Source: a virus (Duplodnaviria > Heunggongvirae > Uroviricota > Caudoviricetes). Taken from it: DNA of 4,976 nucleotides. The notes under the pieces were generated by a model that saw nothing but the letters and a program-made list of their open reading frames with translations, was not told where the DNA came from and made no database searches. Location: IMG/VR virus record IMGVR_UViG_2648501400_000010; one strand, given 5' to 3'. Numbering within the stretch: the stretch's first letter is position 1; each line of letters starts with the position of its first letter. Positions 1,845 to 4,766 of this stretch are shown piece by piece. The translations under genes and the position numbers were made by a program.

Positions 1845-2345
1845 ATGAAAAGAAAATCCCTGTCAGAGATCGACCTGCAAGCCGCCCAGAGACTGAAAGA
1901 AATCTGGACGGCGAAAAAAAATCAACTAGGGTTAACCCAAGAGCGTGCGGCAGAAATTCTGGGATTTTCGACACAGGGAGCTGTAAGCCATTATCTAAAT
2001 GGTCAGACACCTTTAAATCTTGAGGCTGTTATCAAGTTCGCAGGGTTGCTGCAAGTTCCTCCCGAGTCAATCAGACCAGATATGGCCGAGTTGTTACAAA
2101 TTGTAAGGATGTATCCCCAAGAATCTGGGGAGGACAATGTTGTCACTATATCTGCAGATATGGAACAATCGGAAAACGAACTTCCGTTTAATATAGACCC
2201 CATGGAGCGGGATTTGCTCCAGACGTTCAGGGCTTTCCCCAAAGAAGATAAAGAGAAAATGCTTAAGGAAATGAAGGAGAAAAAAGAATCAATTGAAGAA
2301 ATCGTTGCGCGATGGCTAGCTGCGCAAAAGGGTCGTCGCGCCTAA
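1845..2345 (+). CDS. paaR: Prophage repressor, XRE-family HTH, no peptidase S24 domain (RacR / PaaR-like)
   Basis: 166-aa ORF with an N-terminal XRE-type HTH (LTQERAAEILGFSTQGAVSHYLNGQTP) and an acidic/lysine-rich C-terminus without the Ser-Lys autoprotease motifs of LexA/CI. It sits divergent from the cro-like gene and directly upstream of a small-antitoxin/ParE pair, the paaR-paaA-parE arrangement. The symbol is by architecture only; paralogue 1 versus 2 cannot be told. Confidence 0.8.
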   Translation: MKRKSLSEIDLQAAQRLKEIWTAKKNQLGLTQERAAEILGFSTQGAVSHYLNGQTPLNLEAVIKFAGLLQVPPESIRPDMAELLQIVRMYPQESGEDNVVTISADMEQSENELPFNIDPMERDLLQTFRAFPKEDKEKMLKEMKEKKESIEEIVARWLAAQKGRRA

Positions 2346-2362: not shown

Positions 2363-2554
2363 ATGAGTACAGCCCTTTCCCCGATAATTTCTGAATTTGA
2401 AACAGTCGAACAAGAAAACAGCTATAACGAATGGTTGCGAACCAAAGTGGCAGCAAGCCTCTCAGATCCCCGTCCTGCAATTCCACATGACGAAGTAATG
2501 GCTGAAATGGAAAACCTTATTGCTCAATTAGCTGCAACGAACAGGAGTGAGTAA
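2363..2554 (+). CDS. paaA: Small antitoxin of a ParE-type toxin-antitoxin module (PaaA-like, 63 aa)
   Basis: 63-aa ORF with SD AGGAGG at 2350-2355 and a 7-nt spacer. Its stop TAA overlaps the start of the downstream ParE-like gene (TAATG at 2552-2556). Size and position between a regulator and ParE match the PaaA antitoxins. Acidic, low-complexity and probably disordered. Confidence 0.7.
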   Translation: MSTALSPIISEFETVEQENSYNEWLRTKVAASLSDPRPAIPHDEVMAEMENLIAQLAATNRSE

Positions 2555-2844
2555 TGCTGCCCATTTTATGGCTACCTTCTGCACGTGATGATTTACGTCA
2601 GATCGTAGCCTATATTGCTAAGGAAAACCCTCCCGCTGCACGTAGACTAAAAATACGCATTGAAACATCAGTTTTGTCACTTACTGAACACCCTTATCTG
2701 TACCCACCGAGCGAAAGAGTTCCAAGTCTTCGTGAGATAGTGACTCATCCTAACTACATAATACTTTACCGAGTAACAGCATCTAACATCGAGATCGTAA
2801 ATGTAGTTCACTCACGAAGACAGTATCCAAACAAAACCTGTTAA
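2554..2844 (+). CDS. parE: ParE/RelE-superfamily toxin (ParE-like, gyrase-poisoning class)
   Basis: 96-aa ORF (MLPILWLPSARDDLRQIVAYIAKENPPAARRLKIRIETSVLSL...REIVTHPNYIILYRV...IEIVNVVHSRR) with the sequence pattern characteristic of ParE toxins (W near the N-terminus, DL..I..YIA, R.L...I, PY.G/P, REL/REI, Y.I.YRV, IEI..V.H.RR). Translationally coupled to the upstream small ORF. Confidence 0.85.
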   Translation: MLPILWLPSARDDLRQIVAYIAKENPPAARRLKIRIETSVLSLTEHPYLYPPSERVPSLREIVTHPNYIILYRVTASNIEIVNVVHSRRQYPNKTC

Positions 2845-2891: not shown

Positions 2892-2934
2892 TAATAGCAC
2901 TGCTATTTACATAATTAAATAGTAGTGGTATTGT
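2892..2934 (+). promoter_or_regulatory. PL-like promoter with paired operators for the rightward small-gene operon
   Basis: Operator-like inverted repeat TAATAG-CACTG-CTATTT at 2892-2908 and weaker AAATAG-TAGTG-GTATTG at 2917-2933, centres 25 bp apart. -35 TTTACA at 2906-2911, 17-bp spacer, -10 TATTGT at 2929-2934. Same motif and geometry as the sites at 1769-1810. Confidence 0.55.
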
Positions 2935-3669: not shown

Positions 3670-4044
3670 ATGGAATTTAAAGATTTACCAATGCCATTCC
3701 AGGAAATGGCAGCGAATATAGTTCGTTCCCAACTGGCGACTCTTGACCTGAGTACCGTAGAAAAAGAAACCATCGATACTATATCCGGTAACGTGCGTCG
3801 TGCCTTTATCGGTCTGTACGAAGAGAAGCAGCTCTCTGATAACCAGGATTTACATGAAAAATACTTCCTGGAATTAATGGACATCATTAATAAAGGATTT
3901 GGCTTGTTAATGAAAAAGAAAGGGATTCGAATAGCTCCCCTTGAAAATCATTTTACAGCGAGCAGTATTAATTCCTGTGATTTAAAGCATCACACATCCG
4001 ATGGGAAAGTTGAATCAAACAACAAAATATCAATTAATCATTAA
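3670..4044 (+). CDS. Hypothetical protein, 124 aa, AT-rich 3-prime half (possible accessory/moron gene)
   Basis: ORF in track. SD GAGG at 3660-3663 with a 6-nt spacer; 22 nt after the previous stop. No recognisable domain by eye and no transmembrane segment. The C-terminal third is low-complexity and AT-rich (…SSINSCDLKHHTSDGKVESNNKISINH). Confidence 0.55.
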   Translation: MEFKDLPMPFQEMAANIVRSQLATLDLSTVEKETIDTISGNVRRAFIGLYEEKQLSDNQDLHEKYFLELMDIINKGFGLLMKKKGIRIAPLENHFTASSINSCDLKHHTSDGKVESNNKISINH

Positions 4045-4275
4045 TTTATTCACAGGTGAGGTAGAGTGCGTGCGCCGGACACGGATAAGAATCCGGCACT
4101 GACAGTTTACTGAAAAGGATACATCCCTGAAAAGTCAGGGCATAACACGAAAGCGCCCGGCGAGGTAGCTGGTTCATAGATAGCCTGTCGTTAAATTTTT
4201 GTCGACCGTGCGCTTCCGGTTGTGGCAATCCGCGAAATGGCGCGGCGGTAAGTATGGCGGGGTTATTCCTTCCCC

Positions 4276-4335
4276 CGTTGCGGACACCGGGTTGTCAGGT
4301 TGACCATACGCTTAAGTGACAACCCCGCTGCAACG
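4276..4335. other. Long imperfect hairpin / cruciform-capable element (about 17 bp paired over 60 nt)
   Basis: Outer stem 4276-4283 (cgttgcgg) pairs with 4328-4335 (8 pairs including one G-U). Inner perfect 9-bp stem GGGTTGTCA (4289-4297) pairs with TGACAACCC (4317-4325). 19-nt loop. No T-tract immediately after it on either strand, so it is not a canonical terminator. Confidence 0.5.
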
Positions 4336-4577
4336 CCCTCTGTTATCAATTTTCTGGTGACGTTTGGCGGTATCAGTTTTACTCCGTGACTGCTCTGCCG
4401 CCCTTTTTAAAGTGAATTTTGTGATGTGGTGAATGCGGCTGAGCGCACGCGGAACAGTTAAAACCAAAAACAGTGTTATGGGTGGATTCTCTGTATCCGG
4501 CGTTAATTGTTAACTGGTTAACGTCACCTGGAGGCACCAGGCACCGCATCACAAAATTCATTGTTGAGGACGCGATA

Positions 4578-4766
4578 ATGGAAACGTTATTACCAAACGT
4601 TAATACGTCTGAAGGTTGTTTTGAAATTGGTGTCACTATCAGTAACCCTGTATTTACTGAAGATGCCATTAACAAGAGAAAACACGAACGGGAGTTATTA
4701 AATAAAATATGCATTCTTTCAATGCTGGCCCGTTTACGTCCGATACAAAAAGGATGCTGGCAATGA
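4578..4766 (+). CDS. Hypothetical small protein, 62 aa (METLLPNVNTSEGCFEIGVTISNPVFTEDAINKRKHERELLNKICILSMLARLRPIQKGCWQ)
   Basis: Internal ATG of track ORF 4473..4766. SD GAGGA at 4566-4570 with a 7-nt spacer; the upstream ATG at 4473 has no SD. Stop overlaps the start of the next ORF (ATGA at 4763-4766). Confidence 0.45.
   Translation: METLLPNVNTSEGCFEIGVTISNPVFTEDAINKRKHERELLNKICILSMLARLRPIQKGCWQ

Follow-up and report, generated by a model that had tools for sequence, protein, structure and literature searches.

What is made from the long untranslated gap in front of dicB is the question raised by this locus, a 4,976-nucleotide (nt) stretch of a Caudoviricetes genome (IMG/VR record IMGVR_UViG_2648501400_000010), the whole of which is called the window here. 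A preliminary description, drawn from the sequence alone, had proposed that the gap is GC-rich, contains several stable hairpins and yields a structured prophage RNA closed by a weak terminator-like element. Our comparisons indicate that positions 4045-4577 are the untranslated segment of a dicB operon, running from the ydfC-side genes to dicB, and that its product is the Hfq-dependent small RNA (sRNA) DicF, a reading to which we give a probability of roughly 0.93. It is based on a full-length Rfam match, on identity with dicF of Escherichia coli K-12 and on synteny with dicB. The features on which the identification turns are as follows.

4045-4577: untranslated gap, 533 nt
4351-4403, plus strand: DicF sRNA, 53 nt, placed by RF00039 and by K-12 identity
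4366-4402, plus strand: hairpin of the DicF intrinsic terminator, with the U tract at 4404-4408, placed by folding and Rfam
4578-4766, plus strand: dicB, cell-division inhibitor gene (Pfam PF05358, E = 1.7e-37, 62/62 positions)

The structure-family search that the preliminary description had proposed, made against 4227 Rfam families, gave a single match above the gathering score in the window. This is DicF (RF00039), located at 4352-4403 of the plus strand and scoring 76.7 bits where the gathering score is 48 (E = 2.8e-16); the alignment takes in model positions 1-52 of 52. In pairwise alignment, 4351-4403 is identical at 53/53 positions to the annotated K-12 dicF (b1574; 4383-4435 of the K-12 locus extract). 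The surrounding region, approximately 4050-4600, is about 98% identical to K-12, with the homology starting just past the stop codon at 4044. dicB starts at 4578, a YdfA-like DUF1391 gene lies upstream and a DUF1482/YdfD-like gene downstream, and the gene order matches that of K-12. Relatives, K-12 among them, carry an annotated dicB at the equivalent place, and a close relative with the matching arrangement is annotated. The proposed plus-strand RNA closed by the element at 4366-4408 is thus DicF by Rfam, by K-12 identity and by synteny with dicB.

The terminator-like element (GGCGG 4366-4370, CCGCC 4398-4402, TTTTT 4404-4408) is the genuine DicF terminator, and only its description as weak was wrong. 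The stem pairs 4366-4372 with 4396-4402 and is extended by an inner helix (-15.9 kcal/mol, z = -2.0), followed by UUUUU; a simple terminator scan missed it, the loop being longer than 8 nt. A check of the sequence found the positions previously given for the stop codon at 4044, for two leader hairpins and for this element all to be correct. The absence of genes was also borne out, no plus-strand open reading frame (ORF) of at least 40 amino acids being present in 4045-4472. The GC richness applies to about 4100-4400 (0.54-0.57, against 0.37-0.45 in the flanks) and not to the beginning of the gap, 4001-4200 having a value of 0.425.

DicF was discovered around 1989-1990. Its presence at this locus is already known, so that the gap is a well-known prophage site and not a new candidate. 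DicF is not a stand-alone gene either; 4045-4350 (about 300 nt) is the untranslated leader of the polycistronic dicB-operon RNA. The value of the identification lies in correct annotation: an intact prophage copy of an sRNA that acts on cell division, sugar metabolism and the virulence of enterohaemorrhagic E. coli (EHEC) is worth knowing, although its biology is not new. K-12 annotates dicF, whereas the one Prokaryotic Genome Annotation Pipeline (PGAP) record examined in full does not at this locus, and among the matches listed in our E. coli searches no annotated feature lies under DicF. It seems that many E. coli genomes in RefSeq carry DicF without annotation.

Processing of the operon transcript

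In K-12, DicF is cut out of a polycistronic RNA from dicBp, and no internal promoter was found (PMC10448788). Terminated (1,146-nt) and read-through (1,608-nt) transcripts are both present, as are a 190-nt species with an RNase III-dependent 5' end, which accumulates stably in stationary phase, and a 53-nt species with an RNase E-dependent 5' end (PMC10448788; the RNase E dependence also in PMC5069750 and PMC9438474). Two routes lead to the 3' end of DicF: termination, or cleavage of read-through RNA by RNase III to a 72-nt form (PMC5069750, PMC9438474). Pairing with ftsZ, manX, xylR, pykA and, in EHEC, pchA depends on Hfq (PMC10448788, PMC5069750, PMC9438474). The "DicF RNA sequence" of Fig. 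S1B in PMC10448788 (gguagcugg... to ...cugccgccc) corresponds to about 4165-4403 of the window. It includes a segment at 4219-4334, called the block below, which forms the body of the published 190-nt species. The elements of the leader and of the spacer between dicF and dicB that bear on processing are the following.

4074-4097, plus strand: hairpin A (GCCGGA 4074-4079, 12-nt loop, TCCGGC 4092-4097), in the leader upstream of the RNase III cut
4125-4140, plus strand: hairpin B (CCCUGA 4125-4130, AAAG, UCAGGG 4135-4140)
4141-4163 with 4202-4224, plus strand: long-range duplex spanning 4141-4224, from folding, with a hypervariable centre
4335-4350, plus strand: A/U-rich single-stranded linker CGCCCUCUGUUAUCAA, running up to where the 53-nt DicF has its RNase E-dependent 5' end
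4404-4431 with about 4545-4572, plus strand: closing helix of the dicF-dicB spacer, about 28 base pairs (bp), from folding

The multiple stable hairpins of the preliminary description were only partly upheld. The region as a whole folds no better than its dinucleotide shuffles (z = -1.42 on the plus strand, -1.26 on the minus strand). Hairpin A is unremarkable, with -11.4 kcal/mol, z = -1.46 and 14/200 shuffles folding as well; hairpin B (-8.4 kcal/mol, z = -3.57) is equalled by none of 200. Pairing was counted in 51 distinct homologues of 4044-4237. Hairpin A is paired in 97.7% of cells, its stem almost invariant and its loop variable, and it offers no covariation evidence because no pair has changed on both sides. 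Hairpin B is paired in 77.5%; its 4-bp core alone is kept, the two outer pairs are open in 29-30 of the 51 homologues (K-12 included), and three homologues have the compensatory form CUCUGA/UCAGAG. In the covariation check suggested earlier, support was obtained for 4219-4334 and not for either of these hairpins. Both are minor, situated in a portion of the leader that RNase III removes; what counts structurally is the terminator, the block and a pair of long duplexes of the RNase III type.

Counting back from the published lengths places the RNase III cuts at about 4214 (4403 - 190 + 1) and about 4422 (4351 + 71); the nucleases and the RNA species themselves are published. In K-12, the annotated dicF begins with the base that corresponds to 4351. 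Both calculated positions fall within long predicted duplexes. The first duplex, 4141-4163 with 4202-4224, has 20 pairs, 99.5% of cells are paired in the 51 homologues, and 4214 lies in its 3' strand; almost every change affects one side only and leaves a wobble pair. It is probably the RNase III site that makes the 5' end of the 190-nt form. The fold of the spacer, 4404-4572, is more stable than expected (-65.8 kcal/mol, z = -5.62, 0/200 shuffles as good), and its closing helix joins the terminator U tract and the bases after it to the Shine-Dalgarno sequence of dicB (GAGGA 4566-4570). This helix would hide the dicB ribosome-binding site, and it is probably the second RNase III site, giving the 72-nt 3' end near 4422.

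The sequence of events would then be as follows. Transcription would start at a repressor-controlled early-left promoter, predicted at about 2906-2934, and run through the ydfA/B/C-like genes and a 124-amino-acid ORF into the leader. A part would stop at the intrinsic terminator (4366-4408), and the remainder would read into dicB. RNase III would cut the duplex 4141-4163 with 4202-4224 to leave the 190-nt RNA from about 4214, and an RNase E cut in the A/U-rich linker would release the 53-nt DicF (4351-4403). On read-through RNA, RNase III would act on 4404-4431 with 4545-4572 to produce the 72-nt form. DicF would pair with the ftsZ, manX, xylR and pykA mRNAs and with pchA in EHEC, blocking cell division and altering metabolism. 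All steps from termination onward have been demonstrated experimentally in K-12; in the window they are expected from its identity to K-12.

Several points weigh against this account of the processing. The duplexes are simply invariant and show no compensatory changes. The cut positions are arithmetic on published lengths, not mapped bases read from the data, and the 'positions 813/814' of PMC10448788 could not be reconciled with the window coordinates. Processing in this particular strain is presumed from the likeness to K-12.

A conserved folded block upstream of DicF

Between the first RNase III cut and the linker lies a segment that is found, as a side observation to DicF, in many phages without DicF as well. 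Its parts, all on the plus strand, are listed here.

4219-4334: block, 116 nt, conserved to about 4342; four-helix cloverleaf with a pseudoknot; K-12 counterpart at about 1649250-1649365 of NC_000913.3
4219-4226 with 4327-4334: helix P1 (closing)
4230-4234 with 4241-4245: helix P2
4258-4262 with 4273-4277: helix P3
4289-4297 with 4317-4325: helix P4
4252-4257 (GUAUGG) with 4304-4309 (CCAUAC): pseudoknot between the P2-P3 linker and the P4 loop

The window and 67 further distinct copies from IMG/VR and annotated records were aligned with MAFFT without reference to structure. The copies had been collected with the seed pattern CAGGTTGACCAT, which fixes the P4 loop by construction, and the sequences are closely related. 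As a model-fitted alignment mis-registers some P3 variants, pairs were counted on the unfitted alignment together with folding of single sequences. The minimum free energy (MFE) fold of 4214-4345 alone has the same helices P1-P4 as the alignment, and RNAalifold, which allows only nested pairs, picked the linker-loop helix itself. In the unfitted alignment 95.1% of cells are paired, compared with 34-57% when the partners are slid by 1-3 columns. Eight pairs carry double changes, a number reached by 3/500 shuffles (3.9 +/- 1.5), and the 29 cells with double changes are matched by 0/500.

Compensatory changes are found in P1 (GUUGUGGC/GCUGCAAC in the window, GUUGUGGU/ACCACAAC in the class of phage cdtI) and in P4 (U-A to C-G in the copies from P1-type phages). 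Among 64 distinct copies, one pseudoknot position is U-A in 51, C-G in 9 and U.G in 4, and it is C.A in none. P3 varies as a whole stem (CGGGG/CCCCG, CUGGGG/CUCCAG, CAGGUG/CACCUG, CAGGGG/CUCCUG, CUGGG/CCCAG, GGGU/ACCC); its hairpin is the MFE fold in most of 39 distinct variants folded singly, with at least six different stem sequences. The junctions and the P4 loop, and not the P3 loop, are the most conserved parts. Helix P1 contains many G.U pairs (U.G 39, G.U 46 in the unfitted alignment), and since these would be A.C mismatches on the other strand, the structure belongs to the plus-strand RNA. The long hairpin previously drawn at 4276-4335 is borne out as helix P4; its outer extension, CGUUGC/GCAACG, has only 4 bp in most homologues, and its 3' strand is better explained as a partner within helix P1.

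The folding energy of the block is no better than that of shuffles (z = -0.18), and the copies from P1-type phages have no clear closing helix. MFE folds of the whole phage P1 leader and of the whole cdtI leader show neither a clear closing helix nor an upstream RNase III duplex. No Rfam family matches the block at E <= 1 in the window, phage P1, cdtI or pPE4. The cloverleaf is not a tRNA-like element: ARAGORN finds no gene in the window, and no Rfam family of the tRNA clan matches at E <= 1.

The putative RNase III duplex and helix P1 have bases in common, the 3' strand of the former (…CCGGUUGUG) running into the 5' strand of the latter, and the two pairings are mutually exclusive. Because the duplex and P1 compete for the GUUGUG strand, cleavage by RNase III would free GUUGUGGC to form P1 and close the block. 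Cleavage could in this way trigger the final fold.

A distant search of phage genomes with 4045-4410 gave full-length matches and also matches to the sub-block alone. Stx2c phages, phage cdtI and others carry about 4219-4342 alone, a Salmonella phage and an Actinobacillus phage have approximately this stretch, and 4230-4327 is matched in phages P1 and P7 and related phage-plasmids. Three copies and the terminators that follow the block have these coordinates in the extracted loci:

Phage P1, 2484-2615: block copy; terminator about 2615-2645
Phage cdtI, 2495-2628: block copy; terminator about 2630-2690
pPE4, 2488-2625: block copy
IMG/VR loci L123, L103, L130, L034, L040, L056 and L064: further terminators following the block

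Rfam does not find DicF at the phage P1, cdtI or pPE4 block loci. A single copy of the block occurs per locus, with no counterpart in a rightward operon. Its orientation is constant, and in each context seen it lies downstream of a repressor-controlled early promoter; the contexts are Pban of phage P1, the cI side of cdtI, and, upstream of kil, the flank of a dicA-like repressor gene. The distance to the promoter varies: in phage P1 about 20-35 nt separate the mapped -10 of Pban from the start of the block, in cdtI it lies about 280 nt from the likely promoter, and in Qin-type prophages about 1.3 kb from it.

Within about 15-45 nt after the block, every class examined has a stretch rich in U, then a GC-rich hairpin with a poly-U tail, which we take to be a typical Hfq-binding 3' module. 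The hairpins differ by class: DicF has GGCGGUAUCAG...CUGCCGCC, cdtI GGCGGUACCAG...CUGGUACCGC and phage P1 GCCCAUCUUCGGGUGGGC followed by U7; a GGUGGCA...UGCCACC variant of the DicF hairpin and several others are also present. This pattern suggests a family of DicF-like cassettes, composed of block, variable linker or seed, and terminator, of which DicF would be one version. In phage P1 the strong terminator stands only about 175 nt after Pban, upstream of the tRNA genes and ban.

Of 5426 complete E. coli genomes, 4719 contain the DicF region, the median being two copies and the maximum ten. The block is found in 4313 E. coli genomes (8964 places) and DicF in 3969 (6402 places), and about 2,500 block copies in E. 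coli are without canonical DicF. A further 510 plasmids carry the block, mostly non-mobilizable and from Escherichia, Salmonella, Klebsiella and Shigella; among the matches listed they are largely about 92-103 kb, fitting P1. A scan of genome contigs with the GC-rich motif GCGCGGCGGYAAGYATGGC gave 3 real occurrences among the 120 matches listed, the rest being chance matches in high-GC genomes.

Possible functions of the block

The arrangement around DicF leads us to a tentative proposal, held at somewhat under even odds: the block may be the folded 5' domain of the 190-nt RNA, capping the new 5' end, stabilising the long form and presenting the linker to RNase E. In keeping with this, the block is near the RNA 5' end in both the DicF and the phage P1 settings, and in every class it is followed by the linker, U-rich stretch, hairpin and poly-U. 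Against it, a plain hairpin would protect a 5' end, and a pseudoknotted fold of 116 nt exceeds that need; the cdtI block lies about 280 nt from its likely promoter; and the folding energy does not stand out from that of shuffles.

In more general terms, and with the same reserve, the block may be a structured RNA family of its own, absent from Rfam release 15, that supplies phage cassettes with a constant 5' module and controls either terminator read-through or the biogenesis and stability of an sRNA. Its occurrence both in lambdoid prophages and in P1-type phage-plasmids, across Escherichia, Salmonella, Klebsiella and Shigella, would speak for a conserved partner in the host. The 190-nt form containing the block is already published, and annotators have already noted a 'dicF-like region' in phage P1. 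In the literature consulted, which did not extend to Faubladier 1990 and Lobocka 2004, we found no description of the cloverleaf-pseudoknot fold, of the block without DicF or of the diversified terminator cassettes, and a search on block sequence strings returned nothing. That the block is both functional and undescribed is conceivable, a little short of probable. Competition between block and terminator of the riboswitch kind was looked for by eye, and no alternative pairing holds across the classes with different terminators.

Of the other functions considered, processive antitermination in cis, by analogy with put of phage HK022, fares best and is still unlikely. The nascent fold would modify RNA polymerase, so that it reads through the DicF terminator and later ones into dicB/kil, the recombination genes and xis/int, or into the tRNAs and ban of phage P1. 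Speaking for it are the constant orientation, the repressor-controlled early promoter upstream and the intrinsic terminator directly downstream, common to every class examined. In K-12 the genes past the terminator have no other known promoter, and the 1,146-nt and 1,608-nt transcripts both exist (PMC10448788); these prophages have no lambda N-like ORF between promoter and block, and conservation in phage types as unrelated as lambdoid phages and P1 suggests a conserved partner in the host, for which RNA polymerase would be a candidate. However, a constitutive antiterminator placed directly before a terminator would render the latter pointless. There is one copy per locus and no rightward counterpart as in HK022, in Qin-type prophages about 1.3 kb lie between promoter and block, and the four helices and pseudoknot (116 nt) differ from the two stem-loops of put (about 74 nt; PMC9378689). 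Neither blastn nor the covariance model built from the block, whether filtered or not, detects similarity to putL or putR, which were placed in NC_002166 from the residue numbering of PMC9378689; the best score, 8.2 bits, lies elsewhere. Short strings common to block and put (GCGCGGCGG; GGGUU..CAGG.UGA) are seen by eye only. Membership of the put family was rejected on grounds of sequence, profile and architecture, and the resemblance is kept as a functional analogy. An N/nut-type arrangement, composed of an arginine-rich plus-strand mini-ORF and a boxB-like hairpin, was also rejected: the homologue classes do not agree in the frame, nor is the hairpin conserved.

Less likely again is a trans-acting domain, in which the C/U-rich, anti-Shine-Dalgarno-like loop of P3 (UUCCUU, CUCC) would pair with the ribosome-binding sites of targets, making the 190-nt RNA a two-seed regulator and more than a precursor. 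Most variants retain a UCCU/CUCC-type motif in the P3 loop (UUAUUCCUU, UUUCCUCCAUUG, CGACUCCUU, CCUAGUCCU) despite their different stems, in every class a 3' module of the classic Hfq type comes after the block, and the 190-nt form is stable in stationary phase (PMC10448788). Yet conservation peaks at the junctions and the P4 loop and not at the loop that would do the pairing, and C/U-rich loops are common by chance in GC-rich hairpins.

For the gap as a whole, it is very improbable that the transcript of interest is a minus-strand RNA antisense to the dicF region. The minus strand folds nearly as stably (-115 against -127 kcal/mol on the plus strand) and has one weak promoter-like site at 4513-4486; the fold is nevertheless not better than expected (z = -1.26), the count of promoter-like sites is 4 against 2.9 +/- 1.7 in shuffles, the Rfam match, the terminator U tract and the direction of the operon are all on the plus strand, and the conserved helices need G.U pairs that exist on the plus strand only. 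A small protein, either the 60-amino-acid minus-strand ORF at 4046-4228 or an arginine-rich plus-strand peptide ending at TGA 4099-4101, can be practically dismissed: although the minus-strand ORF is present, some phage records annotate a 'hypothetical protein' across the stretch and one homologue class has an ATG-started 20-codon frame ending ...VRRTRIRIRH*, a 1-nt indel at about 4114 breaks the minus frame in K-12 and the nearest relative (in agreement with the preliminary description, which took this ORF as non-coding), the register of the plus-strand mini-frame differs between homologue classes through a 1-nt difference in upstream length and the window has no start codon for it, neither K-12 nor the PGAP record examined has a gene there, and substitutions in the block track base pairing and not codon position.

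Should the block be a functional RNA by itself, the locus of DicF would belong to a modular RNA system of phages that about 80% of E. coli genomes, and P1-type plasmids too, contain. This would give a handle on how lambdoid prophages lacking N, and the ban operon of phage P1, pass a strong promoter-proximal terminator, and on how the toxic genes dicB and kil stay silent or are released.

The surrounding operon and comparison with known systems

Scans for ORFs, Pfam domains, promoters and repeats identify the window as the immunity and early-left region of a lambdoid prophage. Its layout is that of the dicB (dicBF) operon of a Qin/Rac-type lambdoid prophage, as in K-12 Qin, judged by sequence. 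The remaining features are:

Left part, minus strand: replication-initiator-like gene (68-1045), YdaT-like gene and cro-like gene
1770-1817 and 2893-2932: operator-like repeats AATAGCAYTGYTATT, the former between the divergent repressor genes, the latter overlapping the promoter-like site
1845-2345, plus strand: helix-turn-helix repressor gene, HTH_3-type, not DicA
2363-2844, plus strand: PaaA2-like antitoxin and ParE toxin genes (PF21217, E = 1e-21; PF05016, E = 7e-18)
2859-2876: intrinsic terminator just before the promoter-like site
2906-2934, plus strand: operon promoter-like site TTTACA-17-TATTGT with extended TG, counterpart of K-12 dicBp
Downstream of the promoter-like site, plus strand: ydfA/ydfB/ydfC-like small genes, YdfA-like DUF1391 by Pfam
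3670-4044, plus strand: 124-amino-acid ORF without Pfam family, with a sub-threshold VLPT match only
After dicB, plus strand: ydfD-like DUF1482 gene, by Pfam

The site at 2906-2934 would serve as the promoter of the dicB-type operon, and the AATAGCAYTGYTATT repeats look like OR- and OL-type sites, predicted to bind the window's own repressor. The PaaA2/ParE pair is located directly behind the repressor gene, apparently in one transcription unit with it, and K-12 Qin has no such pair there. The 124-amino-acid ORF sits between the ydfC-like gene and the dicF leader and is present in the closest relative as a hypothetical protein; it is absent from K-12 Qin, where homology resumes a few bases after its stop codon. 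The end of this ORF looks like the boundary of a mosaic module. Several GGGTCAA/TTGACGGGTCAAC-type repeats at about 600-690, inside the replication-initiator-like gene, look like the origin iterons of lambdoid O genes; they gave a spurious mir-250 match (E = 0.22).

DicF of K-12 Qin agrees with that of the window in its 53-nt sequence, in its terminator and in lying between the ydfC-side genes and dicB, and its leader and dicF-dicB spacer are about 98% identical to those of the window. The two differ in the prophage backbone: in the window the repressor is of HTH_3 type and is not DicA, the PaaA2/ParE pair lies between the repressor gene and the operon promoter, and the 124-amino-acid ORF (3670-4044) replaces the end of the K-12 ydfC-dicF spacer. 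A few point changes are found in the leader, two of which complete hairpin B of the window.

The 'dicF-like region' annotated in phage P1 (AF234172.1, 68791-68892, misc_feature) sits just downstream from the C1-controlled Pban promoters and overlaps the block from P4 onward, the linker and the terminator. Helices P2, P3 and P4 and the pseudoknot are common to this copy and the window, compensatory changes being found between the two. It differs in that Rfam finds no DicF there, the linker and terminator (GCCCAUCUUCGGGUGGGC and U7) are unrelated to those of DicF, and the closing helix P1 is not evident. The annotation covers only part of the block and assigns neither structure nor function.

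The spacer resembles STnc100 (RF02076): 4401-4610 aligns over the full length of the model, the outer closing helix included, with 38.7 bits (E = 5.4e-6), below the gathering score of 47. STnc100 is a free-standing sRNA, whereas the sequence here is the 5' leader of dicB. Sub-threshold STnc100-like matches also occur downstream of the block elsewhere, upstream of the Kil gene in pPE4 and further downstream in phage P1. In cdtI and the Stx2c-phage class a second long inverted repeat, ACAAAACAGAGAAGAGCA...GUUCUUCUCUGUUUUGU (about 2690-2790 of the cdtI extract), stands in place of the STnc100-like leader, after the post-block terminator and before the first ORF.

The Pas sRNAs of prophages, being encoded in the late region, have no bearing on this locus. 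With putL and putR of HK022, which have a two-stem-loop 'V' architecture of about 70-74 nt, the block appears to have in common that it is a cis-encoded folded RNA on an early, repressor-controlled transcript, upstream of terminators and with no obvious N protein (PMC9378689); HK022 has two copies per phage and the block one. For mRNA-derived sRNAs such as MicL, CpxQ and SroC, which are processed by RNase E, flanking stem-loops fix the cleavage site (PMC9438474). DicF likewise is freed by RNase E beside a structured element and ends in an Hfq-type terminator module; its upstream element, however, is a large, conserved and pseudoknotted domain that is preceded by an RNase III step, in place of the simple stem-loop of the others.

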